Shown here: piece after piece, positions 28,297-46,321 of the stretch | How positions within the stretch are numbered: position 1 is the first letter of the stretch | How the letters are laid out: the number at the start of each line of letters is the position of its first letter | IMG/VR virus record: IMGVR_UViG_3300017914_002709 | Span: 20,698 to 84,697 of that record | Strand: one strand, 5' to 3' | Length of the DNA: 64,000 bases | DNA from: a virus | Notes under the pieces: model-generated | Databases searched by the model: none | Told to the model about the DNA's origin: nothing | What the model saw: only the letters and a program-made list of their open reading frames with translations | Program-made: the position numbers and the translations under genes

Positions 28297-29503
28297 GCAT
28301 TTACACAGTGATGTATTTTGTATGTTTCCATGGATGCACTTAAATGTTACTCCTAAAGGTAATATCTATCCATGTTGTAGCAGTGACTATGTAGAACCAT
28401 TTGCTAATACAAAAGACAGCACATTAGAACAAGCATTTAACAACCACAAGATGCGTGAGCTTAGACGCAACATGCTTGCTGGGCAACGCAATGATGCATG
28501 TACATTCTGTTACAAGCATGAAGAAAATTCTCCACACAGTTTCAGAAAATACAGTTTAGAACACTTTGGACATTTGTATGATGAACTGGTGACTAACACA
28601 GAACCGGATGGTACTGTAAGCGAATTTAAAATGAAGTATTTTGATGTACGCTTCAGCAACATTTGCAATTACAAATGCAGAACATGCGGTAGTGAATTTA
28701 GCAGTAAGTGGGCACAAGAACACAAAGAACATGACGCACCGCCTGCTGGCTTTAAAGTAATACAACATGCAGACAAATCAGGCAAGTTGTTGGATCAAGT
28801 GCTAGACCAAGTTGATAACATTGAACTAGCATACTTTGCAGGAGGCGAACCTCTAATAACTGATGAGCATTACACTATACTTGAAGCAATGATCTCCAGC
28901 GGCAAGTGTGCAGATATTACATTGCGTTATAACACAAACATGAGCAACTTCAAATACAAAAAGTTTGATATAATAGACCTGTGGAGTAATTTCAAACGTG
29001 TTGAAGTAAGCAGCAGTTTGGATCACTATGGCGAAAAAGCAGAGTACATACGCAATGGCACAGAATGGAAAACTGTAAAAGAAAACTTACAGCGCATACG
29101 TGATATCGATTACATTGATTATCAATTCAATTGTGTGCTTAGTAATTTAAATTATGTAACACTTGCAGACTTTTTTGAGTACATGATTAACAATGATTTG
29201 TTGCGCAAACACGATCACATCAGCATTTATCATTTGTTAAATCCGCAATTTTACAGCAGTCAAACTTTACCATATGAAATTAAAGAAAAAGGCACCTTAA
29301 AATTACTAAATTTAATTAGACAAATTAAAGACGAGTATTGGTGTACACAACATATCGAAAATGCAATGCGCTTTGCTACTAGCGCCAATACTTGGGAAGA
29401 ATACGGACAAGAGTTTATACATAATACTGTACGTAGAGATAGAATACGCAATGAAAATTTTGCACAAGTATTTCCTGAACTAGCAGAGTTGTTGAATGGA
29501 TAA
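28286..29503 (+). CDS. Radical SAM enzyme, subfamily A
   Basis: FCMFPW...PCC...CTFC, CNYKCRTC, AGGEPL, FPEL; start moved from 28256 to ATG 28286. Confidence 0.9.
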   Translation: MKDKHLHSDVFCMFPWMHLNVTPKGNIYPCCSSDYVEPFANTKDSTLEQAFNNHKMRELRRNMLAGQRNDACTFCYKHEENSPHSFRKYSLEHFGHLYDELVTNTEPDGTVSEFKMKYFDVRFSNICNYKCRTCGSEFSSKWAQEHKEHDAPPAGFKVIQHADKSGKLLDQVLDQVDNIELAYFAGGEPLITDEHYTILEAMISSGKCADITLRYNTNMSNFKYKKFDIIDLWSNFKRVEVSSSLDHYGEKAEYIRNGTEWKTVKENLQRIRDIDYIDYQFNCVLSNLNYVTLADFFEYMINNDLLRKHDHISIYHLLNPQFYSSQTLPYEIKEKGTLKLLNLIRQIKDEYWCTQHIENAMRFATSANTWEEYGQEFIHNTVRRDRIRNENFAQVFPELAELLNG

Positions 29504-30767
29504 AGAATATCACTTAAAACAAAATCCAGCGTTTTGTATATTGCCATGGATACACATGCATGCCTGGCCTAATGGCAAAGCATTACCTTGCTGTATTGCG
29601 GACAGTGATCAAAGTTTTGGAGACCTGAAAACAAACACTATAGAAGAAGTTTGGAACAGCGAACGCTATAAAGAACTACGTTTAGCAATGCTCAATGGCG
29701 AAAAATTAGATTGTTGCAGTCGTTGTTATGAGCTAGAAGATACCACATGGATTTGGACATTACGCAAAAACAGCAATGAATGGTTTGGCAACAAAAACTT
29801 TGACCTAGTGCAAAACACCGCAGAAGATGGCAGTCTTACTGATATGCGCATGGCTTACTTAGATATACGCTTCAGTAATATTTGTAACATGAAGTGTCGC
29901 AGTTGTGGCCCTGAACTTAGCAGTCTACATGCACAAGAACATGGCGAAATGTATGGCAAACACGAAGTTGCAAAAATGTTGAAAAACAACGGCAGCACAG
30001 TTGTAAACATTGCAAAAGAAAATAACTACTGGGAAAATTTACAAAAGTATTTGCCTGATGTAGAAGAAGTATACTGGGCGGGCGGCGAGCCACTAATCAC
30101 AAATGAACATTACAAAATATTAGACAGTTGGATCGAGTCAGGTAAAACAGATGTAAGATTACGCTACACAACAAACTTCAGCAATATGCGTTACAAAAGC
30201 AAAAGCATTTACAGTTATTGGGAACAGTTTGACGATGTGCAGGTAAGTGCAAGTTTAGATGCAAATGGCACTAGAGCTGAGTTTATGCGCAGTGGTACAG
30301 ACTGGCAGCAGATTGAACAAAACCGTATTGAAATGTTAGAGCGTGTGCCTCATGTGCATTTTGAAGTTACCCCAACAATCAGTTTGTACAACGTGTGGAA
30401 CTTTCCAGACTTTCACATGGATTGGGTAGAACGTGGATTGGTAGATATTGACAAGTGTAGATTGAATGTGCTTACAGGTCCAGACTTTATGCGCATTGAT
30501 TATATACCTGAAGAATTCAAAATAGAATTACGCAGCAAATACATTGATTACAAAAAATGGGCATATGAAAAGTGCAAGGATAATGATCAAGTGCGTGAAG
30601 TACTAGGACACATTGACAGTGTGTTACAGTTTATGAATATGGGCAAATACAACAAACAAAAATTGCGTGAATTCTTTGACAACAATCATAGATTAGATGT
30701 GCATCGCAAAGAAGATTTTTGGGCAGTGTTTCCTGAGTTAGGATGGTTACGTGAGCACATTGACTAA
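29496..30767 (+). CDS. Radical SAM enzyme, subfamily A
   Basis: FCILPW...PCC...CCSRC, CNMKCRSC, AGGEPL, FPEL. Confidence 0.9.
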   Translation: MDKEYHLKQNPAFCILPWIHMHAWPNGKALPCCIADSDQSFGDLKTNTIEEVWNSERYKELRLAMLNGEKLDCCSRCYELEDTTWIWTLRKNSNEWFGNKNFDLVQNTAEDGSLTDMRMAYLDIRFSNICNMKCRSCGPELSSLHAQEHGEMYGKHEVAKMLKNNGSTVVNIAKENNYWENLQKYLPDVEEVYWAGGEPLITNEHYKILDSWIESGKTDVRLRYTTNFSNMRYKSKSIYSYWEQFDDVQVSASLDANGTRAEFMRSGTDWQQIEQNRIEMLERVPHVHFEVTPTISLYNVWNFPDFHMDWVERGLVDIDKCRLNVLTGPDFMRIDYIPEEFKIELRSKYIDYKKWAYEKCKDNDQVREVLGHIDSVLQFMNMGKYNKQKLREFFDNNHRLDVHRKEDFWAVFPELGWLREHID

Positions 30768-31719
30768 GATTACACCTGTGGCAGAACCTTATGCTTGTTT
30801 GACTTGGCAAGTAAATAATTTCTGCAACTTTCAATGCAGTTATTGCAATCCAGGTAATTGGGCTGGAGACAATCGCAACAATGGCAGCTTAGAAACATAC
30901 AAACAAAACACAATGCGTATTTTTAATACCTATAAGGATAAAGGTTACAAACATTTCAAAATATTTTTCAGTGGAGGCGAACCTACACATTGGGAAAACT
31001 TTATTCCACTTGTAACATACTTGAAAGAACAAATACCTAACATCACAGTTGCAGTGAATACAAACCTGTCACGTCCTCTAAAGTATTGGCAAGAACACTA
31101 TCATTTGTTTGACGATATTGTTGCAAGTTTTCACATTGAATTTGCCAAGCAAGATAGATACATTGAAAATGCCAAGTTTTTGTGTGACAAGGTTGATTAC
31201 TTGTGCACTAAAATGTTGATGCATGATAAACGTTTTTGGGACGTAGTTGAGTTTGGTGAGCGTGTACGCAAAGAAGTACCCAACTATAACTTGGAATGGA
31301 CACCACTGTTTGACGAAATGAGTGTAAATGCAGGCCCATGGGAATACAGCGATCCTGTAAAAGTAAATTTTTTAGAAAACGCACAATTTGAAACTGTAAT
31401 GCGTGTGCCAAAACCTTATAAAGAAAGCAAAGCAGTTAGTGTTGCACATTATGATACACACACTGAGCCTGTAAACAGCAACACTATTATTGCAGATAGA
31501 CAAAACTTTTTCGCAGGATGGAAATGTTATGTAGATGACGCACTGTTTATCAATCCACGTGGTGAAATCAGTAGTGCTAGTTGTGGTGTAGGAAACAATC
31601 ACGGAAACATATTGGATAGTGACTTGACTTTTGATTTAAAACCTGTTATATGTAGTAAGTCACATTGTCATTGTGGTACTGATATTATTATACCGAAAGA
31701 ACCATATGAACTTAGCTAA
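30751..31719 (+). CDS. Radical SAM enzyme, subfamily B (C-terminal Cys cluster)
   Basis: CNFQCSYC, SGGEPT, C-terminal GWKC...SCG...CSKSHCHC. Confidence 0.9.
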   Translation: MSTLTKITPVAEPYACLTWQVNNFCNFQCSYCNPGNWAGDNRNNGSLETYKQNTMRIFNTYKDKGYKHFKIFFSGGEPTHWENFIPLVTYLKEQIPNITVAVNTNLSRPLKYWQEHYHLFDDIVASFHIEFAKQDRYIENAKFLCDKVDYLCTKMLMHDKRFWDVVEFGERVRKEVPNYNLEWTPLFDEMSVNAGPWEYSDPVKVNFLENAQFETVMRVPKPYKESKAVSVAHYDTHTEPVNSNTIIADRQNFFAGWKCYVDDALFINPRGEISSASCGVGNNHGNILDSDLTFDLKPVICSKSHCHCGTDIIIPKEPYELS

Positions 31720-32308
31720 CTGGACTAGATTTTACAAATACAACAATTTAGATAGAGTAGATCAAAACGCTGTATATACTCCGTATATCAGTCCTGATAA
31801 AGACGTATATTGCATGGACTTTAGCAATGCAAGCACATTGTTTTTCAACAATGAAGCAACATGGTTAGAACATGTGCAGAATGAAACATATGCACCAGAG
31901 CTTTTAGATATTGACAAACAAAACAAGTACATTACTTTTAAGTGGTACGATACAAGTGTAAATCATTTGATATTCAATCATAAATTTACACAACAGTCGC
32001 AAGCACAAGACACTTTAAATTTGTTAGAAAAGCAAAACATACTAAAACTAAACTTTGTACCTCATACTTGTTACATTGACAATGAAAACAACTTGCGTGT
32101 ACATGATTTTTATGCTTGTGCAAGTGCTAATGCACCTTTGATTGAAATGGAAAAAATTGCAGGTGTAATGAGCGGTGTTATAAAATACTATTATGAGCAG
32201 CACAGTGTTGATGGTATGGTCAGTTTAAAGAATGTGTATATTGATGCTATTCAACAAAATAGAGGAGGTTGGCCTGAATGTCTAAGTACAACTTTTCTCA
32301 CGTACTAA
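31706..32308 (+). CDS. Hypothetical protein, kinase-fold-like, paralogue of 54695
   Basis: APELLDID...KLNFVPHTCYI...RVHDF resembles kinase catalytic/DFG segments without the catalytic Asp; start moved to ATG 31706. Confidence 0.45.
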   Translation: MNLANWTRFYKYNNLDRVDQNAVYTPYISPDKDVYCMDFSNASTLFFNNEATWLEHVQNETYAPELLDIDKQNKYITFKWYDTSVNHLIFNHKFTQQSQAQDTLNLLEKQNILKLNFVPHTCYIDNENNLRVHDFYACASANAPLIEMEKIAGVMSGVIKYYYEQHSVDGMVSLKNVYIDAIQQNRGGWPECLSTTFLTY

Positions 32309-33006
32309 TCAACGGGTGTAGTCACAGCGCAGGCAGCGAAATAGAAGGCAGCGGTATTGGCGAAGGAAACTACAACCGCAACAACAGTTTTGGCGCACAA
32401 CTTGCAAAGCGTTTGGGTGTAGATTATACAAACATTGCATATCCAGGTGCTAGTAACGACTATATTGCACGTACAACCATGTATTGGTTGCTTGATAATC
32501 CGCAACTAGCAAGAAATACACTGTTTCTAATACATTGGACAGGTACAGATAGAACAGAATATTTTTATGATTCGGGTAACACAAGTGCATTTGATTTTAT
32601 TGAAAATGCACCTGATACTGATGTAGCACATTTACATCCGCAACATTATCCTGATTGGGCACCGTCTAAATGGAAAAAGAATTTAGAAGTTTTAAGTAAT
32701 CATTTGTTTATTAATCCAACACAATGGGATATAAACAGATACAATAATATCATTCAAACTCAAACACTATTGCAAGATTACAATTATGTTTTTAGAAATG
32801 CATTTCAATGTTGTGAAAACAAACCTCGTTACAAATACTATATTGATAAATTAAATAAATTTAAAAATTGGGATAACGCCGACGAAAGTTTTTACGACCA
32901 TTGCATTCATGCAGGATTTGATACAGATGGACAACAGTACTGGCATCACAAACTAGAAGCCCACACATATTGGGCAGAAAAATTATTTACTGAGCTTTTT
33001 GTTTAA
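32278..33006 (+). CDS. SGNH/GDSL-like hydrolase or acyltransferase
   Basis: INGCSHSAG, NIAYPGASND, terminal HHKLEAH. Confidence 0.6.
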   Translation: MSKYNFSHVLINGCSHSAGSEIEGSGIGEGNYNRNNSFGAQLAKRLGVDYTNIAYPGASNDYIARTTMYWLLDNPQLARNTLFLIHWTGTDRTEYFYDSGNTSAFDFIENAPDTDVAHLHPQHYPDWAPSKWKKNLEVLSNHLFINPTQWDINRYNNIIQTQTLLQDYNYVFRNAFQCCENKPRYKYYIDKLNKFKNWDNADESFYDHCIHAGFDTDGQQYWHHKLEAHTYWAEKLFTELFV

Positions 33007-34338
33007 TTTATTGTAAAACTTACTTAATTTTTCAATTTGATGATAATTGTGCAACAGTATAGGTAACATACGTTTGTACATTTTTTTCATTTGTTTTATA
33101 TCGTATCGATTTATTTCTTCAATTACTTCGGTAATTCTAGCAAGTCTATCTACATTACTTGTAATTTCGTCATAGTCTTCTGGCCAATAATCGTTGAATG
33201 TTATAAACCCCATTTCACGAAGCATAACCAGTGTTCCTGGTGCAGCACAGATTACAAACGGTCTTAATGCTTTGATTGCATTTAGAGTTTTTTCACTTAT
33301 ATTAGGCCAAGGTTGTGTAACACGACTTTCTTGTACTATGGCACAAAAACACTTTTCATAACTATCAACTGGATCTTGTGTTCTGCGTTGATTGTTTTGT
33401 GGACCTGTATTCCATTCAGGATCTCCACTGCTTGTACACATTTTGGGATTATCAACTTCAAAATGTAATGGTACCTGACGTTGCAATAAATCGTTACCAC
33501 GTAGTAGCTTTTCGGCTAATATTGGGTGTCGTCTGCTAAAATCTCTCCAATCAAACCACATGCGATTTTGCATTTCTTCATTGCTAATTTTAAAATAAAA
33601 ACTTATTTCGTTATCAAATGTCAATCCTTGAGAAGCTAAATGGCTTACAATAAAATGTCTACTTGGATCATATCTCCATGCACCGCTCCAAAACTTTTTG
33701 TGTATTTTTTTAGTTTCTATAGGAGGATATATGTCTCCTGGATGTAACCCTTTTCTATTGTATGTTTCTTGTAATTGGAATCTACTACTATACCAACTTA
33801 CAAAAAGATCCATACTTTTTAGTGTGATGTTTTTATATATAGTTTTGTAGTATTCCCAACTTCTGTGATCTGTACAATGCACATGTAAATTTATATTATG
33901 TTCTGCTGCCCAAGCATCAAGCGTGTCCAGTTCGTAACACCTAATTTTAGATACTTTTTCTGGCTCGTTGTCAATTTTCATAATATGCGGTTCTTCAACA
34001 CCTCTATTGTTTGGAATATAGTGTGTAAGTACTTCAAAAAAGAAAAAGTCAACTTGATTTTCTTGTAAGATTTTTTTATGTTTTGGAGTAACAAAAAGTT
34101 TGTCTAAATTAGGAATATTATGTGTGCCATTGTATATTACAGTAGGATTCGGATGCTGCATAATGAAACTTTCTTTGACCAAATCCATTAAGCCTTCTAT
34201 TTTACTAATCACAGTCAACGGTGTACGTTTTCCGTCCTTCATAATCAGCTCGGGTAAAAGTTTGTTCCTAGGAAGAAAGTATAATGCACCAAACCATTCT
34301 TGCAATTTTTGTTTCCTTTGATTTGTAAATAGTAGCAT
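32983..34338 (-). CDS. Glycosyltransferase-like protein (GT10/GT-B-like C-terminus)
   Basis: IVQES...ISEKTLNAIKALRPF...LREMGFITF...EDYD; shared with 37543 and 39509. Confidence 0.5.
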   Translation of the reverse strand: MLLFTNQRKQKLQEWFGALYFLPRNKLLPELIMKDGKRTPLTVISKIEGLMDLVKESFIMQHPNPTVIYNGTHNIPNLDKLFVTPKHKKILQENQVDFFFFEVLTHYIPNNRGVEEPHIMKIDNEPEKVSKIRCYELDTLDAWAAEHNINLHVHCTDHRSWEYYKTIYKNITLKSMDLFVSWYSSRFQLQETYNRKGLHPGDIYPPIETKKIHKKFWSGAWRYDPSRHFIVSHLASQGLTFDNEISFYFKISNEEMQNRMWFDWRDFSRRHPILAEKLLRGNDLLQRQVPLHFEVDNPKMCTSSGDPEWNTGPQNNQRRTQDPVDSYEKCFCAIVQESRVTQPWPNISEKTLNAIKALRPFVICAAPGTLVMLREMGFITFNDYWPEDYDEITSNVDRLARITEVIEEINRYDIKQMKKMYKRMLPILLHNYHQIEKLSKFYNKLNKKLSK

Positions 34339-34346
34339 ATTATTTA
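34326..34346. promoter_or_regulatory. Overlapping bidirectional late-type promoter pair TAAATA-N9-TATTTA
   Basis: + TAAATA at 34326-34331 and - TAAATA at 34346-34341, at the divergent junction 34338/34359. Confidence 0.6.
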
Positions 34347-34358
34347 TTTGGATTATAC

Positions 34359-35147
34359 ATGAGCGGACTTACTTTTAATAAAGACTACAAACTATTGGTT
34401 CATAACTCGATGATAAATCAAGAAACTGAATACTACAGTACTGATTCGGCAGATTTGTTTAGAAAAAACTTGAAACGGCATCCTAAAAATTGGGAATGGC
34501 GAAATAAAAAAGTAAGGTATAAGTTTAACAGTTTAGGTTACCGTACGAAAGAAGTAACAGATGTAAAAAGATTTATATTAGGTTTTGGATGTAGTTTTAC
34601 AGAAGGTGTTGGTTTAAACGAGCAAGAAGTTTGGTTGTACAAGTATGCTAAACAACTAGGTATCCAACATCTTAATTTTGCTAAAGAAGCAACCGGAATG
34701 GATGTTCAGTATTATAATACCCTATTGTGGAAACAAAACAAATTACCATTGCCGGAACTTGTAGTATGTCAATGGCCACAAAGATTTAGGAAGAGTTTTG
34801 GTTTTACAGAACAAAAAGATATCGTTTTACGAGATATGAGCGAAACACCAACAAAAGATGGTGTATGGTGGGGTAAACGATATATTGCAGACACAGCCGA
34901 AATGCAAATGAATGCACTCCAATGGTACCTAGGAATGAACAATACTTGGCAAAGTTTAGGCGTTCCTGTGCTGAATTTTAGTTGGGAAACAGATATTTGC
35001 AAACAACTTGAATGGACAGAATTTCCGTGTCATCATGTAGACCCGAGGGGCGTTGGTAGTATGCAAGCTAGAGATTGTGCACACGATGGTGAAGCATTTC
35101 ACGAATTAACAACAAAAAGTCTATTGCGAATCACGGACAAGATCTAG
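34359..35147 (+). CDS. SGNH/GDSL-like protein
   Basis: GFGCSFTEGVG, NFAKEATG, RDCAHDG (DxxH). Confidence 0.6.
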   Translation: MSGLTFNKDYKLLVHNSMINQETEYYSTDSADLFRKNLKRHPKNWEWRNKKVRYKFNSLGYRTKEVTDVKRFILGFGCSFTEGVGLNEQEVWLYKYAKQLGIQHLNFAKEATGMDVQYYNTLLWKQNKLPLPELVVCQWPQRFRKSFGFTEQKDIVLRDMSETPTKDGVWWGKRYIADTAEMQMNALQWYLGMNNTWQSLGVPVLNFSWETDICKQLEWTEFPCHHVDPRGVGSMQARDCAHDGEAFHELTTKSLLRITDKI

Positions 35148-36134
35148 TGTACAACAATGAAAACAGCCACCTAGTGTTCTTGCATGTCTGATTGGTAACA
35201 TTGCACATTCGATGCCATGCTTTTCTAATGCCTTGCGTGTAGGTTCTTGATGTTCTTCAAGTACAACAAGATTAGGATTCACACTAAACAAATTTACATT
35301 CCAAGTCCAAATACTACTATTACACATTCCGGGATAATGTCCTGCATCAACAGGATCAGGCGCCCAAATAATATCCCAATTATTAAATGGCGCAGGTAAC
35401 ACATCTTTATCTTTGATACGACTTGGATTAGCCAATAATAATCCTTCACGCAAGAATGCAATAGTACTATCGATATGCATGTAACTATAAACATTTTCAA
35501 GTGTGTGTACTTTTACATTAGATGTGCTTTCTAGATAACTTCTCTCAGGTTTGTTTATCCAGTCTTGCAAATATGTTGCACCTGCTTTGTTACCACTATT
35601 ACTAACAAGATATAATATGTCATCATTGGCTCTGATAGCATTAGCAGCATCAAAACAAGGTGCAACTTCAGTTAGTGCTAATTTGTCTGGGTCACCAACA
35701 CATGCTTCGTCGTATAACTCGTCAATCTTGTCAATACGCTGTGAAACTTGCACACCTGCAATATGTGGTAACATATGGTAAAATTCTTTATCTCTTGCAC
35801 GTAAACTCATAGGAGCTGCAAGCATTTTTTCACCATGAACAAATACAGTGTCTCTTGGACAATAATTATAATATTCTACTTCTTCTGTGCGTTGAGGTCT
35901 TACAACTTCAACACTTTCGCCTTCTAAAAATTTTACAAATTTTTCTAAGTCTTCGTTAGATTCATCTATAACTTGATCAGGATATGGGCCAGCCTTGACA
36001 TTGCTTACATCCTGTCTGTCTGCATAATTTATACAACGCAGACTTTTATCCATGGGAGGTATTTTAGCACCGTCGGCAACACCAACGACAACCTTTTTTA
36101 AAGTATCCCATTCATTGGCACTATAAATATTCAT
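35121..36134 (-). CDS. Amidinotransferase (glycine/inosamine-phosphate amidinotransferase family)
   Basis: YSANEWDTLKKVVVG, CPRD, HID and GGCFHCCTLD with the catalytic Cys. Confidence 0.88.
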   Translation of the reverse strand: MNIYSANEWDTLKKVVVGVADGAKIPPMDKSLRCINYADRQDVSNVKAGPYPDQVIDESNEDLEKFVKFLEGESVEVVRPQRTEEVEYYNYCPRDTVFVHGEKMLAAPMSLRARDKEFYHMLPHIAGVQVSQRIDKIDELYDEACVGDPDKLALTEVAPCFDAANAIRANDDILYLVSNSGNKAGATYLQDWINKPERSYLESTSNVKVHTLENVYSYMHIDSTIAFLREGLLLANPSRIKDKDVLPAPFNNWDIIWAPDPVDAGHYPGMCNSSIWTWNVNLFSVNPNLVVLEEHQEPTRKALEKHGIECAMLPIRHARTLGGCFHCCTLDLVRDSQ

Positions 36135-36144
36135 ACTATATTTA
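36124..36144. promoter_or_regulatory. Overlapping bidirectional late-type promoter pair TAAATA-N9-TATTTA
   Basis: + TATAAATA at 36122-36129 and - TAAATA at 36144-36139, 4 nt before the amidinotransferase ATG. Confidence 0.65.
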
Positions 36145-36153
36145 AGGAATTAT

Positions 36154-36984
36154 ATGGGTAGATTATTCACTTTTGGTTGTAGCTTTACAAACTACATGTG
36201 GCCTACTTGGGCAAACATTGTTGCATTTGATAGGCAAAAAGAACTATACAATTATGGACATGCTGGTTTAGGCAACGTTGGTATAATGTTACGTGTGTTA
36301 GAAGCTGATATGAAATGGAACTTTACCGACGATGATGAAATTATGATAATGTGGTCTAGTTGGACACGTGACGATAAGGTGCTGCAAAACACTTGGCAAG
36401 GCAACGGCAGTAGATTTAATCACATTGCGCATATAAAACAACTTGGAAAAACTTGGTCACCTGAAGATGATATTATCAAAAACGCTAGTGCAATGATTTA
36501 TGTCAAAAAAGCATATGGAAATTTAATAACATTTCAAGGCAACGGATTTACACCATGGATAGGTGAAGGTGCAACTGGAATTATTGATACAGCACTTTAC
36601 AAAGTTTTTGATAACGAAAAAGAAGTTGTTAAAATAAAAAACTTTTACCAAAAACATACTCCAAATATTCCTACAAAAAGTTTAGACAAAGTATCTACAC
36701 AAGCATTTGATTATGTAGCAGATTGTCATCCTGATATCAAAGGACATTTGCAAATTGTAGAAGATTTTGTTTATCCTAATTGTAATCATGTGATAGAACT
36801 CCGTCAAGAAACTAAAGATACATTTAATGACATACATGAAAAGTTAAAACAACGTTTAATGAAAGTTGGTGCAAAAACTCTTGATAAAGCACAGCCTTAC
36901 CCTGCTGGAATAATTCAAGAATTTTATCCTGAATTAGAAGATTTGTTTACAATACGTTCACTGATAGACGATATGTCAGGGTAA
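36154..36984 (+). CDS. SGNH/GDSL-like protein
   Basis: TFGCSFTNY, NYGHAGLGN, DCHP; AAGGA SD. Confidence 0.6.
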   Translation: MGRLFTFGCSFTNYMWPTWANIVAFDRQKELYNYGHAGLGNVGIMLRVLEADMKWNFTDDDEIMIMWSSWTRDDKVLQNTWQGNGSRFNHIAHIKQLGKTWSPEDDIIKNASAMIYVKKAYGNLITFQGNGFTPWIGEGATGIIDTALYKVFDNEKEVVKIKNFYQKHTPNIPTKSLDKVSTQAFDYVADCHPDIKGHLQIVEDFVYPNCNHVIELRQETKDTFNDIHEKLKQRLMKVGAKTLDKAQPYPAGIIQEFYPELEDLFTIRSLIDDMSG

Positions 36985-37532
36985 TCTTTCCATGTCCATT
37001 TTTTTGCTGGTGTTGCTATAGCAGCTGGTAACTTTTCTAATCCTAGTTGTGCAGTTTCTGGAGTCATATAGTAATGATAGCCTTGCTGGTAAATTGTTTG
37101 ATCCATCCAAGAACTATTTCTATGTCTGCCATCATATCCTAGTTTTATTAGTTCAGCTCTATCTAACGCACTATCACATAGTATCATACCAGCTCTGCCT
37201 AAACTTAGATGCTTTCTGTACTGAAAACTAATACACATGAATGTTCCTGGTATATAACTGTTTGGGCGCCAAAGCACAGCAGCATCATAGATATTACTGG
37301 TTAAGGCATAATATTCTTCCCATTTAGCATCAGTCCAACTTACATCGATACCAATTTTCCATGCTGTCATTGGTATACTAAGATATGTGTGCTTGGGTAC
37401 AGTTACAAGTTTAACATCTTTATAGCGTAAACAAAGCTCAACAGCATGAGTACAACAATCTGTGCTAACAGCATATGGAGCACCAAAGAATTCTGCAACC
37501 GCTTTCTCGAATTTATCTACTACTTCGAACAT
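36924..37532 (-). CDS. DegT/DnrJ/EryC1/StrS-family aminotransferase, short (202 aa)
   Basis: FEKAVAEFFGAPYAVSTDCCTHA, YDAAV, SFQYRKHLSLGRAGMI (PLP Lys). Confidence 0.8.
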   Translation of the reverse strand: MFEVVDKFEKAVAEFFGAPYAVSTDCCTHAVELCLRYKDVKLVTVPKHTYLSIPMTAWKIGIDVSWTDAKWEEYYALTSNIYDAAVLWRPNSYIPGTFMCISFQYRKHLSLGRAGMILCDSALDRAELIKLGYDGRHRNSSWMDQTIYQQGYHYYMTPETAQLGLEKLPAAIATPAKKWTWKDYPDISSISERIVNKSSNSG

Positions 37533-37543
37533 AATTATACTTA
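37532..37543. promoter_or_regulatory. Compact divergent element TAATTA/TAAGTA between start codons 10 nt apart
   Basis: - TAAGTA (37543-37538) is 5 nt before ATG 37532; + TAATTA (37532-37537) is 5 nt before ATG 37543. Confidence 0.45.
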
Positions 37544-38622
37544 TGCAGGACTACGAAACTGATGACAGATTTTTAAAACGATGGAAAGATAATTTTTTCT
37601 ATTTTGTATGGGGACCCAGTAATCCTCCTAATCTTTGGCAAGATATGCAAATATCAGAAAAGCCTAGAGGCTTGTATGTTATGGGTGTTGAAGAGTGGGA
37701 AGGTGCTGAATTGTTTCCTAATGTATGGGAATATTTTGCACTCAAAGAATATGCAAAAAATTACAACATTGATTTAAAAGTTTTTATTGGTGCAATCAAA
37801 GATCAAACATATAACTCACGCTGGCATTATAACAACGAAGATAACATTGTTAGTGTACCAACATATTTTGCAAATATCATAATTGATCATGCTATACAAA
37901 ATAATAGAAAGCCGTTAGCACATACTAAAATAGAGAAATTATACACAAGTATGAACGGTAGAGCACATCCGTGGCGATGTATGTTTATAGATGAAATGTA
38001 CGGCGCAGGATTATTTGATTATGGCAATGTAAGTTGGCATAACTTAGATAATTTTGAATTAGATTACGAGTTCAAACATTGGCAACCAACAAGTCTTAGT
38101 TTTGACAAAAATTTTGAAGGTTCTGATGGTATGTGTGATATATTTCGTCCTCCTGAAGAATTTCAAACAAGTTTATTCAGTTTTATTAGTGAATCAAATA
38201 CAAAATGCTTGTTCTATACAGAAAAAACATTTTTACCTATACTAAACAAGAGACCGTTTTTTATATTTGGTGCTCCTTATGCAAACACTTATCTAAAAAA
38301 TCTTGGATTTGAAATCTTTGATGAAGTAATTGATTATAGTTTTGATAGTGTAGATAACGATTTGCACAGATGTCAACTATACTTTGAACAAGCACAAAAA
38401 CTCTCGCAAATGTCACTTGACACATTACACAATACAGTGTATAGTAAAGTTGAGCACAATTTCAATCGATTACTCGAAATCGTTGAAAACAAAGAATATG
38501 TTCCTAAGGCTTTTGACAAAATTTGTAAACAAAACAAAGATAATATGTATGTTACAAATTATCATAGATTGTTAAACATAGGAAGCACAGAACAATACAA
38601 AGACTGGAAGTCAAAAATATGA
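37543..38622 (+). CDS. Glycosyltransferase-like protein (GT10/GT-B-like)
   Basis: FISES...YTEKTFLPILNKRPF...LKNLGFEIFDEVIDYSFD; start moved from 37462 to ATG 37543. Confidence 0.5.
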   Translation: MQDYETDDRFLKRWKDNFFYFVWGPSNPPNLWQDMQISEKPRGLYVMGVEEWEGAELFPNVWEYFALKEYAKNYNIDLKVFIGAIKDQTYNSRWHYNNEDNIVSVPTYFANIIIDHAIQNNRKPLAHTKIEKLYTSMNGRAHPWRCMFIDEMYGAGLFDYGNVSWHNLDNFELDYEFKHWQPTSLSFDKNFEGSDGMCDIFRPPEEFQTSLFSFISESNTKCLFYTEKTFLPILNKRPFFIFGAPYANTYLKNLGFEIFDEVIDYSFDSVDNDLHRCQLYFEQAQKLSQMSLDTLHNTVYSKVEHNFNRLLEIVENKEYVPKAFDKICKQNKDNMYVTNYHRLLNIGSTEQYKDWKSKI

Positions 38623-39530
38623 AAATTTTACTTACTGGAGCAAGCGGCTTCATCGGACAACATTTAAAACCTAGATTAGAACTCATAGGCGAAGTGCATT
38701 GTCTCAACAGCGATCTTAAAATGCATCATGCAGTAAAAGAAGAAATTGCACATGTAAAGCCAGATATTATTGTACACCTTGCTGCACGTACTGAAGTACA
38801 AGAAAGTTTTTATGAACAGGTTGAATTTAGTGAAGTAAACTATGTAGGAACTGTAAATCTCATTGAAGCATGTAGACAAGTAGATCCTATGCCTTATTTT
38901 GTTTTTGCAAGCACAATGGAAGTTTACGGATGGCAACCTATCAGCGATGAAGTAGAACAAACCGGAACTTATGTAAACAGTGTTGCATTTGACGAAAACA
39001 CACAGCCAAATCCAAATGCACCGTATGCTGTTGCAAAATATGGTTGTGAAAAATATCTTGAATATGCTCAACGTGCATATGGACTAGAGTTTGCAAGTTT
39101 TAGACAAACCAACAGTTACGGACGTAAAGACAATGATTATTTTGTAACAGAACAAATTATCAGCCAAATGCTAAAAGGCAACGAATGTAATTTAGGTTAT
39201 GGAACACCATTTAGAAACTTTATATACATCAGTGATTTACTTGATGCATGGATGGCAGTAATTGAAAATAGAGATGCCTGTAAAGGTAATTTTTACACAA
39301 TTGGTCCAGATGATCCTCGCAAAATTAAAACTTGCGCAGAATATATTGCTGAACAACTTGAGTGGACAGGCACTATCAATTGGAATACAAAGCCACCTAG
39401 ACATGGTGAAATTTATTGGTTGAACAGTAATCATAATTTGCTTACAAGTAAAACAGGATGGAAACCTAAGGTAAGTTACGAAGAAGGTATTGATAGGACA
39501 ATCCATCATTGGAAACAAATAATCAAATAG
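38619..39530 (+). CDS. NAD-dependent NDP-sugar epimerase/4,6-dehydratase (extended SDR)
   Basis: GASGFIG, HLAA, STMEVYG, YAVAK (YxxxK). Confidence 0.88.
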   Translation: MKILLTGASGFIGQHLKPRLELIGEVHCLNSDLKMHHAVKEEIAHVKPDIIVHLAARTEVQESFYEQVEFSEVNYVGTVNLIEACRQVDPMPYFVFASTMEVYGWQPISDEVEQTGTYVNSVAFDENTQPNPNAPYAVAKYGCEKYLEYAQRAYGLEFASFRQTNSYGRKDNDYFVTEQIISQMLKGNECNLGYGTPFRNFIYISDLLDAWMAVIENRDACKGNFYTIGPDDPRKIKTCAEYIAEQLEWTGTINWNTKPPRHGEIYWLNSNHNLLTSKTGWKPKVSYEEGIDRTIHHWKQIIK

Positions 39531-40573
39531 TATATACAAATTGGGATCCTTGCAACGATATATCAATGTTTGGATTGACACGATTACCGTTTGACGAATG
39601 GCAAGGAGACCATACATACCTATATGCACTTGATTATAGATACAATCTACAATATGATAAATTAAAATTAGGTCATAACGAAAACGTTATATTACTACTA
39701 GACGATACACTTGAAGGATACAGTCTTTCAAGTTTTAAAAGGGTTCAGCGTATTGTAAAAGAAGAAAAATTACCACGTGTAATTTATGCTTCATCTCATC
39801 TTGATGCAGTGCAAGAATACGACAAATGGTTGCAAAACAACACCAGCAACTTTTATGTTTATGCTATGAATGGTTGGTATTGGAGATTTCGAGACTGGAC
39901 AATTGATTGTGCAGAAGAAAATAAAATAGATAAAACTAGATGGTTTTGCTGCTTACAAAACAGACATAGATATCATAGAGGTGCAGCAATGCTATACTTA
40001 AATCATTTAGATTTAATAGAACAAGGCATATGCACTGCTAATTATAAAAATATCAAACAAATTTTTGATATAAATCGTTTTTCTAAAGAATCTATGTTGC
40101 AAAAACAATTACAATTGTTAGAAAACAAATTACCTATGAGTGCAGACATTTTATATGATGGATACAACGATAGTTCCAGTCCTATGGATTTGTCAAGTCA
40201 AATATATGATGATACATTGATAAATCTTGTTACAGAAACTTTCTATGATACAAATGCATTTAATCAAGTTAGTGAAATGTTTATTACAGAAAAAACATAC
40301 AAACCTTTTGTCGCATATCAATTACCTATTATAATAGGTCCACAAGGTATAGTAAAAAAACTTAGAGAAATTGGTTTTGATATGTTTGATGATATAATCG
40401 ATAACAGTTATGATGAATTAGATGATAAACATAGAGTGTTTGGTGCAATTGACAGTTTGCATAAATTAATGCATAATAACATAGTAAACTTAAATAATTC
40501 TACACGTAAAAGAAGAATCAAGAATAGAAAAAAATACCTCAAAGGTATGTTTAAAGAAAAGAAGATAGTATGA
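39509..40573 (+). CDS. Glycosyltransferase-like protein (GT10/GT-B-like)
   Basis: NLVTET...ITEKTYKPF...LREIGFDMFDDIIDNSYD. Confidence 0.5.
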   Translation: METNNQIVYTNWDPCNDISMFGLTRLPFDEWQGDHTYLYALDYRYNLQYDKLKLGHNENVILLLDDTLEGYSLSSFKRVQRIVKEEKLPRVIYASSHLDAVQEYDKWLQNNTSNFYVYAMNGWYWRFRDWTIDCAEENKIDKTRWFCCLQNRHRYHRGAAMLYLNHLDLIEQGICTANYKNIKQIFDINRFSKESMLQKQLQLLENKLPMSADILYDGYNDSSSPMDLSSQIYDDTLINLVTETFYDTNAFNQVSEMFITEKTYKPFVAYQLPIIIGPQGIVKKLREIGFDMFDDIIDNSYDELDDKHRVFGAIDSLHKLMHNNIVNLNNSTRKRRIKNRKKYLKGMFKEKKIV

Positions 40574-41178
40574 AGGTTGATTTAAACGATATAGCATTTT
40601 GGATGGATGCAATTAGAAACAACGAAGACCATTTTGGTGTGCTTGAAAGTTTTTGGAAAGGTCAACTTCAAAGCAAGCAATGGTTAATTGAATGCTTATC
40701 ACGAGTAGTAGAAACAGATAAACAAAATAAAATTGTAATACACGGCGGTTGGAACGGTGTACTATCTAGTCTACTATTCAACAGTAATATTCCTATTCGA
40801 AGCATACGCAGTGTGGACATTGATCCTGCTTGTGAAGAAGTAGCAAATATGGTTTGCAAGCGTCAAGAAATGGCAGGATTATTTACAGCTATTACAGAAG
40901 ACATGTGTACATATCAGTATGATGTTCGCCCAGATATTGTAATTAATACCAGCACGGAACACATTACACAAGAGCAATATAACATTTGGTTTGACAATAT
41001 ACCCGAAGGCACACTAGTAGTAGTGCAAAACAATGATTACGAATCAGTGCCTGATCATATACGTTGTTTTAGTAATCAACGTAATTTTAAACGTTCAACT
41101 GGACTTGTAGATATAGTGTTAAAAGAAACACTACAACTTCCTCTGTACAATAGATTCCTTGTGATTGGTAAAAAATGA
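40570..41178 (+). CDS. Class I SAM-dependent methyltransferase
   Basis: IHGGWNG motif I, SVDID, INTSTEH; paralogous to the C-terminus of 58267. Confidence 0.75.
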   Translation: MKVDLNDIAFWMDAIRNNEDHFGVLESFWKGQLQSKQWLIECLSRVVETDKQNKIVIHGGWNGVLSSLLFNSNIPIRSIRSVDIDPACEEVANMVCKRQEMAGLFTAITEDMCTYQYDVRPDIVINTSTEHITQEQYNIWFDNIPEGTLVVVQNNDYESVPDHIRCFSNQRNFKRSTGLVDIVLKETLQLPLYNRFLVIGKK

Positions 41179-42557
41179 GTGTAAAATCTTTTATTGATTT
41201 ATTTCAAAGTTCACTTGAAGACAAAGCAACACCAAGTTTTTGTGTCCTGCCTTGGATTCATATGGCTACCAGACCCAATGGCGATATGCGATTATGTTGT
41301 AGTGCAAACGCCAGTGGTGCAGGCGACGATCACACAGTTGGTTTAGTAAAGGATAAAGGACAAGTTGTAAATTTCAGTAATGTCACACCCTTAGAAGCAT
41401 GGAACAGTGATTACATGCGGTATACTAGACGCACAATGATGGAAGGTAAAGTTCCTGCAAGTTGTACAAAGTGTTTTGAAGAAGAATCAAAAGGTGTAGT
41501 AAGCAAGCGTATGTGGGAAACTAGCACCTGGATGGAACGTGGTGTTGATATTGTAGACTTGTTAAATGAAACACGCAAAGATGGCACTGTTGACGAAAAT
41601 ATAAAATATCTTGATCTGCGTCTAGGACATACTTGTAATATTAAATGTGTTATGTGTTCACCTCATGATAGCAGCAAGTGGGTTAAAGACTGGAAAGTAT
41701 TGGAACCGCAATTAGAAGATGCTGAAGTCAAACGGCAAATGCAATGGGACAAAACTGCATTTAATAACAAGTGGCACGAAAACGAAATTTTTTGGGACCA
41801 GTTGTATAAACAAATTCCAAATCTACAGGAAGTTTACTTTGCAGGTGGCGAACCACTGATGATTGCCGAACATAAAAAGTTCATTGAGGAAATTGTACGC
41901 AGTGGACATAACAAACACATAAGATTACGTTATAACACAAATGGTATTCTTGTAGATGAAGAACTTATTGATTTATGGAAAAACTTTGAACTTGTAAAAG
42001 TTGGTGTAAGCATGGATGCAGCAGGACCTCGTAACAATTATATACGCTATCCTACCGATTGGGATATTGTTGAACGCAACTTGCATATGTTAGATAATAC
42101 TCCTGACAACATACGTCCTAGTATTGCTACTGCATTGCAAATTTTTAATATCAAACATTTACCTGATTTTGTACATTGGAAAGTGACAAGTAATTTTAGA
42201 AAAGTAAACACAGAAGAAATCCGTGGTATACGTGCAGGCGGCGGCCTAATGAATATGCATTTGTTGTATATTCCGACTTTTTTAAGTATACAAATATTGC
42301 CAGAAGAAGATAAGCAAGAAATACGTGAGTTGTTTGGCAATTTCAAAGGTTGGCTTGAACAATGGCACAAAACTGATTCAAGTTTTTTTACAACTAATCC
42401 TTATGGTTGGCGCAGATGGGAAGCAGTATTAAATCACATGGATTCAAAAGACAACAGTCATTTATTGCCAGGATTCAAAGAGTATGTTACAAAACTAGAC
42501 GCTATTAGAGGAGTGAGTGCAAAGGACATATTTCCTGAACTAGCACATTTATTATGA
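41175..42557 (+). CDS. Radical SAM enzyme, subfamily A
   Basis: FCVLPW...LCC...CTKC, CNIKCVMC, AGGEPL, FPEL; closest to 60628. Confidence 0.9.
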   Translation: MSVKSFIDLFQSSLEDKATPSFCVLPWIHMATRPNGDMRLCCSANASGAGDDHTVGLVKDKGQVVNFSNVTPLEAWNSDYMRYTRRTMMEGKVPASCTKCFEEESKGVVSKRMWETSTWMERGVDIVDLLNETRKDGTVDENIKYLDLRLGHTCNIKCVMCSPHDSSKWVKDWKVLEPQLEDAEVKRQMQWDKTAFNNKWHENEIFWDQLYKQIPNLQEVYFAGGEPLMIAEHKKFIEEIVRSGHNKHIRLRYNTNGILVDEELIDLWKNFELVKVGVSMDAAGPRNNYIRYPTDWDIVERNLHMLDNTPDNIRPSIATALQIFNIKHLPDFVHWKVTSNFRKVNTEEIRGIRAGGGLMNMHLLYIPTFLSIQILPEEDKQEIRELFGNFKGWLEQWHKTDSSFFTTNPYGWRRWEAVLNHMDSKDNSHLLPGFKEYVTKLDAIRGVSAKDIFPELAHLL

Positions 42558-43468
42558 TACGCAGTATAAAAAATTTAGACACAGATTTTATTGTTGAGCT
42601 TGAATTAGGTAATGTTTGTAACTTCAAATGCAGTTATTGCTTTCCTGGTGCAAATACTGGTGACAACTTATGGCCTGATGCGGATAAACTTGCAAATGCA
42701 TTGCTTAATTATTTGAAAGTGCATAATCGTCGTACAAGATTATACATTCTTGGAGGCGAAACTACATTATGGAAAGATTTGCCAAAGTTTTGTAAAATTC
42801 TCAAAGATAATCACGATGTGATAATCAGTATCAGTACAAATGCTAGTAAAAGTCTACGTTGGTGGAATCAATATGCAGATTGTTTTGATGTCATACACAT
42901 TAGCTTACATCCCGAAGAAGCTGACATTGATCATACAATTAGTGTTGCAGATTTATTGTATGAAAAAGATATTGAAACAAATGTTGATATTCTTATGAGT
43001 CCTACAGATTTTGATAACTGTATAAAACTTGTTGATAAAGTGCAAAAAAGTAAAAATAAATTTCCTATCATTGCAAAAACTGTTTTGATTGATGGTGCAC
43101 ATAATTACAACGAACAGCAATTAGATTATATGCAAGATCCTATCAAGCGTATTCCTGATATGAAATGGTATGATCGTGTGCGTAAAAAAGCAAGAACAAC
43201 CATGCTTGTAGATAACAAGATTGTATACAATGACAATTATTTTGTGTTAAATGATTTAAATCATTTTAAAGGATGGGTATGTCATTTAGGTGTAGACATT
43301 GTTAAAATAGATCATAAAGGAAATGTCAAAGGAAATTGTGGCCAATTGGTAAATCAAAATATATATACAGATAAATTTTTTACCATTGAACCTGTTATAT
43401 GTGAACAAGATACATGTTATTGCAGCGGAGAAATGTGCACAACAAAATGGTTACCTTATGAATTTTGA
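42554..43468 (+). CDS. Radical SAM enzyme, subfamily B
   Basis: CNFKCSYC, GGET, GWVC...NCG...CEQDTCYC. Confidence 0.9.
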   Translation: MIRSIKNLDTDFIVELELGNVCNFKCSYCFPGANTGDNLWPDADKLANALLNYLKVHNRRTRLYILGGETTLWKDLPKFCKILKDNHDVIISISTNASKSLRWWNQYADCFDVIHISLHPEEADIDHTISVADLLYEKDIETNVDILMSPTDFDNCIKLVDKVQKSKNKFPIIAKTVLIDGAHNYNEQQLDYMQDPIKRIPDMKWYDRVRKKARTTMLVDNKIVYNDNYFVLNDLNHFKGWVCHLGVDIVKIDHKGNVKGNCGQLVNQNIYTDKFFTIEPVICEQDTCYCSGEMCTTKWLPYEF

Positions 43469-44498
43469 TACACTGCATCCTTATACAAAAAATATATTTC
43501 AAGTTGCTTGGGAAAGTACCTTAAAATGCAATTTAGATTGTACATATTGTGGTGACGGACATGATAACAGCACACAGCACCCGCCATTGGCAAACTCTCT
43601 TAATACTGTTGATTTTATACTAGAATATCTACATCGTAAAAATGTACAAAAAGGCAATTTAAACATACAAGGTGGAGAAAGTTTATTTCATCCTAGCATA
43701 ATTCATATACTCAAATACATTGATAATAAAAAGCAAGAATATGATTATTATCTAGGTGTGAGTTTTATTACTAATGCAGTTGTTGGAAAAAATTTATGGA
43801 GTAGAGTTTGTGATTACACAGATTTTATGACTGTGAGTTTTCATGCAGAAGCAACTAGTAAACAGCACGAATTAATAAAACAAAATATCTTATATCTAAA
43901 AGAAAAAGGAAAAAACTTTCATGTTGCAATAATGATGCACCCAAAATATTGGCAAATTTGTACAGACATGCTAGATTGGTGTAGGATAAACGAAATAAAA
44001 TGTGTACCTAGACAAATTGATCATCATTGGCTAGACATGAGGTTTAACTACAATGCTGAACAAACTGAATTTTTATTAGGCAGGAAAGTCACAACCAAGG
44101 ATAAAATTGCTTACGCATTTGTTAAAGGACTAAATTTAAGTGCAGAAGGACGCAGTTGTTGTAGTAAAAAAGACTTGTGTGCAAGTGGATGTATGACAAA
44201 TTATGTAAACAACAAATTCAAAGGTTGGACTTGTAGTGTTGCAGACAATTTTTTGTATATAAGACAGAATACAGGAGAAGTATTTACAAATAAAGATTGT
44301 AAAATGAACTACAACAACAAAGTTGGTCCAATCGGTAATTTATCAGATACCAAAAGCATTTTTAATACTATGCATAGTAATGGCATTGTATGTAAAAAAA
44401 GCAGTTGTTGGTGTGGATTATGTGCTCCTAAAGCAAAAACAAAGGAACAGTTTAATGCCATGATGGCAAATTTAAAGAATTATACTCAGTCAGAGTAA
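43458..44498 (+). CDS. Radical SAM enzyme, subfamily B
   Basis: CNLDCTYC, QGGES, GWTC...KDC...CKKSSCWCGLC; start moved from 43386 to ATG 43458. Confidence 0.9.
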   Translation: MNFDTLHPYTKNIFQVAWESTLKCNLDCTYCGDGHDNSTQHPPLANSLNTVDFILEYLHRKNVQKGNLNIQGGESLFHPSIIHILKYIDNKKQEYDYYLGVSFITNAVVGKNLWSRVCDYTDFMTVSFHAEATSKQHELIKQNILYLKEKGKNFHVAIMMHPKYWQICTDMLDWCRINEIKCVPRQIDHHWLDMRFNYNAEQTEFLLGRKVTTKDKIAYAFVKGLNLSAEGRSCCSKKDLCASGCMTNYVNNKFKGWTCSVADNFLYIRQNTGEVFTNKDCKMNYNNKVGPIGNLSDTKSIFNTMHSNGIVCKKSSCWCGLCAPKAKTKEQFNAMMANLKNYTQSE

Positions 44499-45597: not shown

Positions 45598-46321
45598 GTT
45601 GTTTATTATAGCTTTCAACAAGAAGTTTGCAAAACTCTTGTTTTCTATTTCCTAGATAGCAGTGTGCAATAATATGTGTTCTTGGTTTGTCACTGCAATT
45701 TATAACGCTGTGATTGTTTAAAATATTCACTATAAATATTTTACCACTTTTAAATGGCACACATCCTTGTCCTTTCAGTGTCATATAACAGTTGTTAGGA
45801 TGATCTACAGCAATATTGAGAGGTAATGGCATGTCTAGTATATTATCCATATCAATGATAGGATTATAATCGTTGTGTTCATTGATCCATCCATTTGCTG
45901 CAAGACGCATAAATCTGATACGTGCAAAACTTTCAGCAGGAAACACGCTATCAAAAAACAATCTAATTGCTTTTGTACGTTTTCCTAAATTCGTCCAATT
46001 GTAATCTGGTTCTTTATCATATCCATATGTTTGCCACACATTTGTTTTATCTGTATCAATTCCATGTATAGCACAGCTATCCCATCCTTGGTGTGTGCCT
46101 TCGCCGCTAGTCACATCTCGGTGACTGACATAGTATTGTTCTGCAATTTCTGCTTCTTGTTTCCATCTTGTAGTTGGAAACATGGCATTTATTTCTATCC
46201 AATGATAACCATTGCCTTGCAAAATCCATTTTGCTTGTTCTTCTAATGACAAATCCGGTAGTGGACGACTATCTAATTGCACATCTTTGTATTTTTTGTA
46301 GAACTTTAGCGCATCATTCAT
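45572..46321 (-). CDS. Fe(II)/2OG-dependent oxygenase (Asp/Asn beta-hydroxylase-like)
   Basis: RIRFMRLAANGWINEHND (HxD), NNHSVIN...PRTHII. Confidence 0.75.
   Translation of the reverse strand: MNDALKFYKKYKDVQLDSRPLPDLSLEEQAKWILQGNGYHWIEINAMFPTTRWKQEAEIAEQYYVSHRDVTSGEGTHQGWDSCAIHGIDTDKTNVWQTYGYDKEPDYNWTNLGKRTKAIRLFFDSVFPAESFARIRFMRLAANGWINEHNDYNPIIDMDNILDMPLPLNIAVDHPNNCYMTLKGQGCVPFKSGKIFIVNILNNHSVINCSDKPRTHIIAHCYLGNRKQEFCKLLVESYNKQHEQVQRQI

Follow-up and report, generated by a model that had tools for sequence, protein, structure and literature searches.

The stretch of DNA analysed here (the window; 64,000 nucleotides) comprises bases 20698–84697 of the 117-kb virus record IMGVR_UViG_3300017914_002709 from IMG/VR, for which CheckV gives a completeness of 32%. 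Positions 32278–41178 of the window hold a cassette of ten open reading frames (ORFs), coding for a StrB1-type L-arginine amidinotransferase, a half-size aminotransferase of the DegT/DnrJ/EryC1/StrS family (mini-DegT), a candidate nucleoside diphosphate (NDP)-sugar 4,6-dehydratase of the extended short-chain dehydrogenase/reductase (SDR) type, three GT10-like glycosyltransferases, three SGNH-like proteins and a methyltransferase-like protein. A preliminary description, made from the sequence, had proposed that these genes act together in the synthesis of a guanidino sugar. All ten ORFs were found exactly at the positions it gave, and its assignments to enzyme families were upheld throughout. 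It had also described the genes as alternating in orientation. This is true of the first six, while the last four all lie on the plus strand (+ − + − + − + + + +).

The amidinotransferase (35121–36134, minus strand; 337 amino acids) found StrB1 (1bwd) as its best match in a phmmer search against the PDB, with an E-value of 2.3e-55 over residues 6–334. HsvA (1.4e-32), SxtG (5e-29) and AGAT (6e-29) followed, and Pfam missed the protein, the arginine deiminase (ADI) model reaching only E 0.26. Its CPRD, FDAAN, HxD and FHC(x)T motifs line up with those of StrB1 and, like residues D95, D162, H220, D222 and C327, do not vary among 22 viral homologues. Judged from its sequence, the protein is a StrB1/AGAT-type amidinotransferase with intact catalytic residues, and L-arginine is its predicted donor. 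The nearest bacterial homologues belong to the same family and share 35–38% identity over the full length, but they are found in a conserved set with PALP (SbnA-like), ornithine-cyclodeaminase-like (SbnB-like) and AMP-binding/carrier protein genes, a diaminopropionate-type context with adenylation and carrier functions. Since no DegT, SDR or glycosyltransferase gene occurs there, we regard this set as a separate functional branch, and its amino-acid, non-ribosomal peptide synthetase (NRPS)-type context means that homology alone leaves a sugar acceptor unfixed. The operon is conserved in Hyphomicrobiaceae, Halieaceae, Acidobacteria and other bacteria (loci L155–L234, e.g., L179:1-13400) and includes, besides the SbnA-like PALP and SbnB-like homologues, a 1,440-amino-acid AMP-binding/peptidyl carrier protein (PCP)/hexapeptide protein; it looks like a route to a guanidino derivative of diaminopropionate.

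The mini-DegT (36924–37532, minus strand; 202 amino acids) matches Pfam PF01041 with 54.6 bits against a gathering cut-off of 19.8 (E 1.3e-14; 55.7 bits summed in the genome scan). It covers profile positions 20–99 and 163–236 of 360, and positions 100–162 and 237–360, including the whole C-terminal domain, are absent. The protein thus departs from the two-domain DegT architecture of about 360–400 amino acids with a C-terminal small domain, and the DegT assignment of the preliminary description stands for the family but not for a standard enzyme. The pyridoxal 5′-phosphate (PLP) lysine K107, located in the SFQYRK segment, and residues S102, F103 and D83 are invariant in 28 sequences, and the K107/D83 segment aligns with the matching region of perosamine synthase. 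A family profile was required to find relatives in the PDB, where perosamine synthases and other sugar aminotransferases were the best matches; phmmer with the single sequence gave no PDB match. Database searching returned at least 7,918 metagenome protein clusters, those listed being about 195–205 amino acids long. Because the PLP lysine and the aspartate are invariant and homologues of like length are abundant, the mini-DegT is an intact short gene rather than a broken one. Recoded stop codons were considered as a cause of the short length and rejected, as the downstream frame is rich in stops and thousands of homologues are equally long. Homologues also occur in two uncultured huge phages of 642 and 595 kb, LR756502.1 (461770–462336, locus L074; 57% identity) and LR756511.1 (32% identity), in neither of which tblastn detected an amidinotransferase homologue.

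The SDR (38619–39530, plus strand; 303 amino acids) matches PF01370 (Epimerase, E 2.6e-40) and PF16363 (GDP_Man_Dehyd, E 1.6e-36). It carries the GxxGxxG motif of the NAD site (TGASGFIG) and YxxxK (PYAVAK); G7, G10, Y136 and K140 are conserved without exception among the aligned SDRs. The active-site motif reads S-T-M-E-V-Y-G, keeping the Thr and Glu of T-(D/S)-E with Met in the middle position. The Glu marks dehydratases and decarboxylases, and T-x-E is shared by decarboxylases and some reductases. The best NCBIfam model, dTDP-glucose 4,6-dehydratase TIGR01181, scored 114.8 bits, far under its cut-off of 365, and the best PDB match was the GalE-type epimerase 4zrm. The NDP-sugar 4,6-dehydratase proposed earlier is therefore sustained as an extended SDR with T-x-E, while the activity itself is not established by these matches; on sequence grounds, a 4,6-dehydratase role is plausible. 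The enzyme lacks the NHESP motif of the SDRs that resemble GDP-mannose 4,6-dehydratase (GMD) and represents a distinct T-M-E subtype, termed STME below.

To place these enzymes in context, neighbours within 5 kb of the amidinotransferase gene were compared in 67 loci, comprising 65 IMG/VR viral contigs, the cultured Synechococcus phage S-SCSM2R and the window. A mini-DegT gene lies nearby in 61 of the 67, mostly directly upstream on the same strand. A small H-x-D...H Fe/2-oxoglutarate (2OG)-type oxygenase (OXY) is present in 56, GT10-like genes in 39 and an SDR in 12. Further neighbours are glycosyltransferases, an O-carbamoyltransferase, a B12 radical S-adenosylmethionine (SAM) enzyme and a UDP-glucose/GDP-mannose dehydrogenase, all of them sugar-tailoring functions.

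The set centred on mini-DegT consists of the best 80 of more than 583 viral loci. Here, an SDR lies within 3 kb of mini-DegT in 64 of the 80, typically in the order mini-DegT then SDR, a coherent pattern in which the two would form an amino-sugar core. GMD-like SDRs with the NHESP motif account for 34 loci, none of which has an amidinotransferase, and STME SDRs like that of the window account for 17, of which 16 have one. In a maximum-likelihood tree of 112 mini-DegTs, the GMD-linked sequences form one clade (100/97) without any amidinotransferase-linked member. Loci lacking the amidinotransferase carry hexapeptide-acyltransferase-like (weak Pfam match), formyltransferase, methyltransferase, full-length DegT and GT2 genes, while acyl- or formyltransferase genes of this kind were found within 4 kb in none of 20 amidinotransferase loci. 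Because it is linked to mini-DegT and the STME SDR and is exclusive of N-acyl- and formyltransferase-like genes, the amidinotransferase appears to take the place of the N-tailoring enzyme in an NDP-amino-sugar pathway, a place held elsewhere by N-acyl- or N-formyltransferases. The keto- to amino- to guanidino-sugar logic proposed in the preliminary description fits this linkage (61/67, 16/17 and the sister GMD loci), and the amino-acid context of the bacterial homologues speaks against it.

Two side observations were made in these loci. A UDP-glucose/GDP-mannose dehydrogenase-like gene beside a mini-DegT (L100:4777-5844, minus strand) has a weak Pfam Intein_splicing match over residues 261–352 (E 9e-5), which may be an intein remnant. 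In addition, a 138-amino-acid protein without a Pfam match accompanies the pair of GMD-like SDR and mini-DegT in 29 of 35 loci (L108–L153, e.g., L136:6513-6929) and is thus a conserved companion of this amino-sugar core.

Several known systems resemble parts of the cassette. Among them, streptidine synthesis is the closest system, and GDP-perosamine synthesis with N-tailoring comes closest in pathway architecture. In the streptidine branch of streptomycin synthesis (StsC and StrB1), as in the window, an amidinotransferase is paired with a DegT-family PLP enzyme in a keto, amine, guanidine sequence. The window enzyme is closest to StrB1 among solved structures and keeps its Asp/His/Cys site. 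In contrast, the window has no cyclitol-forming, kinase or phosphatase genes, its aminotransferase is half-size, the phage cassette includes glycosyltransferases, and the acceptor is probably an NDP-sugar or glycan, not scyllo-inosamine phosphate. GDP-perosamine-type pathways, in which GMD and perosamine synthase are followed by an N-acetyl- or N-formyltransferase, share the layout of dehydratase, aminotransferase and N-tailoring enzyme, and resemble the mini-DegT loci both in the best profile matches and in the 34 viral loci that combine a GMD-like SDR with N-tailoring genes. They differ in that the window SDR is of the T-M-E subtype and N-tailoring is by an amidinotransferase, giving a guanidine rather than an amide. 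A mini-DegT (31% identity) also occurs in the sugar cluster of Flavobacterium phage immuto (MW353176), together with glycosyltransferases, an SDR epimerase/dehydratase and a methyltransferase, but there a PglB-like acetyltransferase follows it where the window clade has the amidinotransferase.

Among the cultured phages of the collection, a close homologue of the amidinotransferase (65% identity) occurs only in S-SCSM2R (PQ898602). Its ORF305–309 combine amidinotransferase, mini-DegT (53%), small oxygenase and glycosyltransferases in one operon. Unlike the virus analysed here, it is a T4-like cyanomyovirus, with the oxygenase in place of the STME SDR and without SGNH or GT10-like paralogues at the locus. 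The homologues in this phage have been listed as 'antibiotic synthesis genes', and its glycosyltransferases were discussed separately as cell-wall or DNA modifiers (PMC12801897). Full-text literature searches on guanidino and amidino sugars, and on phages with this combination of genes, returned nothing beyond that report.

The three GT10-like paralogues are encoded at 32983–34338 (a; minus strand, 451 amino acids), 37543–38622 (b; plus strand, 359 amino acids from the first ATG, the ORF opening at GTG 37462) and 39509–40573 (c; plus strand, 354 amino acids). Residues R157, E243, E261 and K262 are invariant in 32 sequences of the family, in a V-x-E-T...(S/T)EK pattern, and these conserved R, E and E-K residues also identify paralogues a and b in the alignment. 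They may correspond to the Arg and E...(S/T)EK nucleotide-sugar-binding motif of GT10 known from the H. pylori FucT structure. The orthologue of paralogue a in the circular metagenomic contig L071 is 58% identical. An AlphaFold model of paralogue c (macf07d024b12; pLDDT 72.7) has a GT-B fold, in agreement with Foldseek. Its VIA Z-scores of 9–10 tie T4 beta-glucosyltransferase (9.9) and T4 alpha-glucosyltransferase (9.6) with FUT11, H. pylori FucT and FUT9 (9.1–9.2) and other GT-B enzymes; by sequence identity the GT10 members come closest, and the AFDB matches include fucosyltransferases. As far as the model allows, the GT10-like proteins are GT-B glycosyltransferases. In the window they have no Pfam match even at E ≤ 10, the family profile finds no glycosyltransferase in the PDB, and one distant viral relative matches PF00852 below the cut-off (E 0.004). 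The GT10-like proteins, two of the SGNH-like proteins and the methyltransferase-like protein are likewise without a match in Pfam, PHROGs or NCBIfam.

SGNH1 (32278–33006; 242 amino acids), SGNH2 (34359–35147; 262 amino acids) and SGNH3 (36154–36984; 276 amino acids) all lie on the plus strand. SGNH1 matches DUF6071 (PF19547, E 8.8e-9), SGNH3 was assigned by alignment with the other two, and in the window clade SGNH3 sits between mini-DegT and the amidinotransferase. Across 28 sequences from the three paralogue groups, the block I serine in a G-C-S motif (not G-D-S), N, R and a C-terminal His (block V) do not vary, while the Asp of D-x-x-H is present in only some groups. The AlphaFold model of SGNH2 (pLDDT 88) gave 17 Foldseek matches in the PDB at E ≤ 1e-3, of GDSL/SGNH type except CgnD, whose fold class is unchecked; they include TesA, GDSL lipases and thioesterases, CE2 and acetyl-xylan esterases and the peptidoglycan O-acetyltransferase PatB. 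At the level of the model, the SGNH flavodoxin-like fold of SGNH2 is confirmed; the family profile found nothing significant in the PDB, with sub-threshold GDSL matches at E 0.1–0.3. The last gene (40570–41178, plus strand; 202 amino acids) is methyltransferase-like as a lead only, from a language-model feature search of the atlas in which viral clusters named methyltransferase scored 0.99 and a Methyltransf_31 cluster (21% of members) 0.96.

In most other loci, OXY is situated between mini-DegT and the amidinotransferase. It is absent from the window, where all six frames were searched, and from the window clade. Since fusion proteins occur, the OXY and GT10-like families were delimited by domain-level searches. 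OXY is fused N-terminally to a GT10-like GT-B domain in 11 proteins of 590–628 amino acids (L033–L037, L055–L059 and L062; e.g., L033:9558-11339). These fusions argue that the GT10-like genes are part of the amidinotransferase module and bear out the earlier suggestion that they serve the same pathway. Against the PDB, the OXY profile found only AtsK (E 0.22). The window does encode an Asp/Arg-hydroxylase-like Fe/2OG oxygenase (45572–46321, minus strand, 249 amino acids; PF05118, E 7e-8) 9 kb from the amidinotransferase, which shows no detectable relationship to OXY.

The cassette is tightly packed. Start codons of divergent pairs are 20 bp (34338/34359) and 19 bp (36134/36154) apart, and 10 bp at 37532/37543 if paralogue b begins at its first ATG, while convergent neighbours overlap at their 3′ ends by 24–61 nucleotides (32983–33006, 35121–35147 and 36924–36984). 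This leaves no space for two conventional promoters with ribosome-binding sites. The spacers between the divergent starts (34336–34361, 36132–36156 and 37530–37545) are AT-rich and TATA-like. The divergent and convergent arrangement is kept in L002–L006 and L071, and the gene set and order recur in L071 (362.8 kb) and about 20 other viral contigs, so that the clustering is non-random.

The cassette lies within a larger island flanked by radical SAM genes. Four are located upstream (26917–31719, plus strand), three of them of the N-terminal-twitch family (NF033640, E 4e-91 to 9e-115; Pfam SPASM and Radical_SAM), and three downstream (41175–44498, plus strand), all matching Pfam Radical_SAM and one, at 41175–42557, matching NF033640 (E 5e-118). 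Altogether, ten radical SAM paralogues were noted at 26917–31719, 41175–44498 and 47369–50684, of which five match NF033640, the N-terminal twitch domain (E 4e-91 to 5e-118); in paralogues of this type, an auxiliary Cys-rich domain precedes the radical SAM core. None of the 42 ORFs of the island (21–63 kb) contains a transmembrane or membrane-protein-type hydrophobic segment, and the island therefore encodes no flippase, polymerase or membrane-bound initiating transferase. This counts against an exported host polysaccharide made via a flippase and polymerase and favours a cytoplasmic acceptor such as a phage protein, DNA or a small molecule.

The flanks match SbcC/SbcD-like nucleases, a baseplate hub/tail lysozyme and virion structural families, which confirms the phage origin assumed earlier. 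The SbcC-like protein is nearest (48–49% identity) to those of the jumbo myoviruses Sinorhizobium phage Phosso and Pseudomonas phage PA5oct. In L071 the island is present gene for gene, and the size of this contig agrees with the genome size implied by CheckV. The source genome is a marine jumbo myovirus of about 360 kb. A sequencing-run search found the stretch in three seawater metagenome runs of one study, all DNA, with no RNA run among those listed. Megablast of the 8.9-kb cassette against cultured phages gave no match, and a search for the Gp23 capsid family was as silent in the window as in the control genomes. An ORF of 4,572 amino acids at 1465–15183, 17 kb upstream of the cassette and beside other large ORFs, may encode a fibre or adhesin that could serve as a glycan acceptor. 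The position of the island after this ORF and other structural genes lends circumstantial support to virion glycosylation.

Combined, family identities, catalytic residues and gene linkage are in line with a cytoplasmic sugar-tailoring block for a guanidino sugar, and we put the probability of the full mechanism at about one half. The SDR, with its T-M-E and YxxxK residues, would act on an NDP-hexose supplied by the host, oxidizing or dehydrating it to an NDP-keto(-deoxy)sugar, and mini-DegT, which keeps the PLP lysine and the aspartate, would transaminate the keto group to an amine. The amidinotransferase would then take the amidino group of L-arginine onto its active-site Cys and pass it to the sugar amine, yielding a guanidino sugar (+42 Da) and ornithine. 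The three GT-B transferases could attach the guanidino sugar, along with others, to an acceptor in the cytoplasm, for which a structural protein of the phage is the most plausible candidate. The SGNH proteins may add or remove O-acyl groups, the methyltransferase-like protein may methylate, and the flanking N-terminal-twitch (NF033640) radical SAM enzymes may introduce further modifications. In this scheme we infer the product, nucleotide carrier, substrates, order of steps and acceptor (virion protein, DNA or other).

A number of observations weigh against such a pathway. Across viruses, the amidinotransferase can occur without the dehydratase, which accompanies it in only 12 of the 67 loci, and the window SDR is not separable from an epimerase or decarboxylase on sequence. 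The loss of about 60 internal profile positions and the C-terminal domain bears on the substrate range of mini-DegT. No sugar-1-phosphate nucleotidyltransferase was found in the 117-kb record, which covers about one third of the genome, and the co-occurrence counts are drawn from related contigs and do not represent independent events. Finally, the bacterial homologues of the amidinotransferase adjoin SbnA/SbnB-like and NRPS-like genes, an amino-acid rather than a sugar context. This last point is also the basis for supposing that the enzyme uses a non-sugar amine, be it an amino acid such as diaminopropionate, a polyamine or the side chain of a protein, and that its linkage to sugar genes reflects no more than co-location in a variable island. 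In the PDB, the solved relative HsvA ranks second among the matches, and 6 of the 67 loci lack a mini-DegT within 5 kb, two of them (L018 and L029) with a divergent SDR directly upstream instead. However, mini-DegT lies within 5 kb in all the others, on very different phage backbones, the viral loci yielded no SbnA/SbnB-like or NRPS-like gene, and the amidinotransferase and the sugar N-acyl/formyltransferase-like genes are mutually exclusive. A non-sugar acceptor is therefore rather improbable. The lack of a nucleotidyltransferase speaks in favour of a scheme in which the same chemistry takes place after glycosyl transfer, the substrate of the oxidase or SDR, mini-DegT and the amidinotransferase being a sugar that a phage protein or other polymer already carries. 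Loss of the C-terminal domain and internal segment could open the mini-DegT active site for this purpose, and most amidinotransferase loci (56/67) have the Fe/2OG oxygenase in place of an NDP-sugar dehydratase. The OXY–GT10-like fusions furthermore recall hydroxylase-glycosyltransferase enzymes that hydroxylate and then glycosylate a protein residue. On the other hand, the sister mini-DegT clade adjoins GMD-like dehydratases, whose product exists only as a GDP-sugar, StrB1, the closest solved relative, uses a small phosphorylated substrate, and we know of no DegT-family enzyme that acts on polymers. We consider modification after transfer unlikely.

The remaining alternatives concern the final product. 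A free aminocyclitol or aminoglycoside-like small molecule would agree with the streptidine logic of an StsC-type and a StrB1-type enzyme, with the presence, in other loci, of carbamoyltransferase and B12 radical SAM genes next to the module, and with the label of antibiotic synthesis given to the S-SCSM2R homologues (PMC12801897). Among the ORFs of the 26.9–50.7 kb region, however, Pfam and NCBIfam revealed no sugar-phosphate cyclase, inositol dehydrogenase, kinase, exporter or resistance gene, the island has no membrane protein, and both the several glycosyltransferase paralogues and the location next to fibre genes suggest that a macromolecular glycan is made, all of which renders a free small molecule quite improbable. 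It is also conceivable that the enzymes hypermodify the phage DNA with a decorated cationic sugar as a defence against restriction: both T4 DNA glucosyltransferases are among the tied top structural matches of paralogue c (Z 9.9 and 9.6), all enzymes are soluble, and a cationic DNA adduct would be functionally sensible. Those Z-scores are nevertheless shared with many GT-B enzymes, sequence identity being highest to GT10 fucosyltransferases. Moreover, no thymidylate-synthase-family hydroxymethylase was found in the 117-kb record (about one third of the genome), and no DNA-binding or base-flipping feature was shown. DNA as the acceptor is very improbable on this evidence.

A guanidino sugar made by an NDP-amino-sugar route would extend what is known of natural glycans. 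Aminocyclitols and nucleoside antibiotics can carry guanidino groups, but we know of no natural glycoconjugate in which a glycan sugar carries one, and such a sugar would, if confirmed, constitute a new class of monosaccharide in glycobiology. The ~200-amino-acid DegT is notable as a minimal PLP sugar aminotransferase with predicted activity. The module is also abundant, with mini-DegT in at least 7,918 metagenome clusters and the amidinotransferase in 65 IMG/VR contigs, from jumbo phages to T4-like cyanophages, and the cultured phage S-SCSM2R makes the guanidino-sugar hypothesis directly testable. A broader and more doubtful scenario, put forward tentatively, is that marine jumbo phages and cyanomyoviruses decorate their own virion proteins with guanidino-deoxysugars that are further O-acylated, methylated and modified by radical SAM enzymes, that Fe/2OG hydroxylases, some fused to GT10-like domains, create the attachment sites, and that the half-size DegT is a minimal aminotransferase scaffold in thousands of uncultured phages. 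If the guanidino sugar is indeed made, the phage glycan would bear a permanent positive charge, which would be likely to influence adsorption and host range as well as resistance to proteases or grazers.

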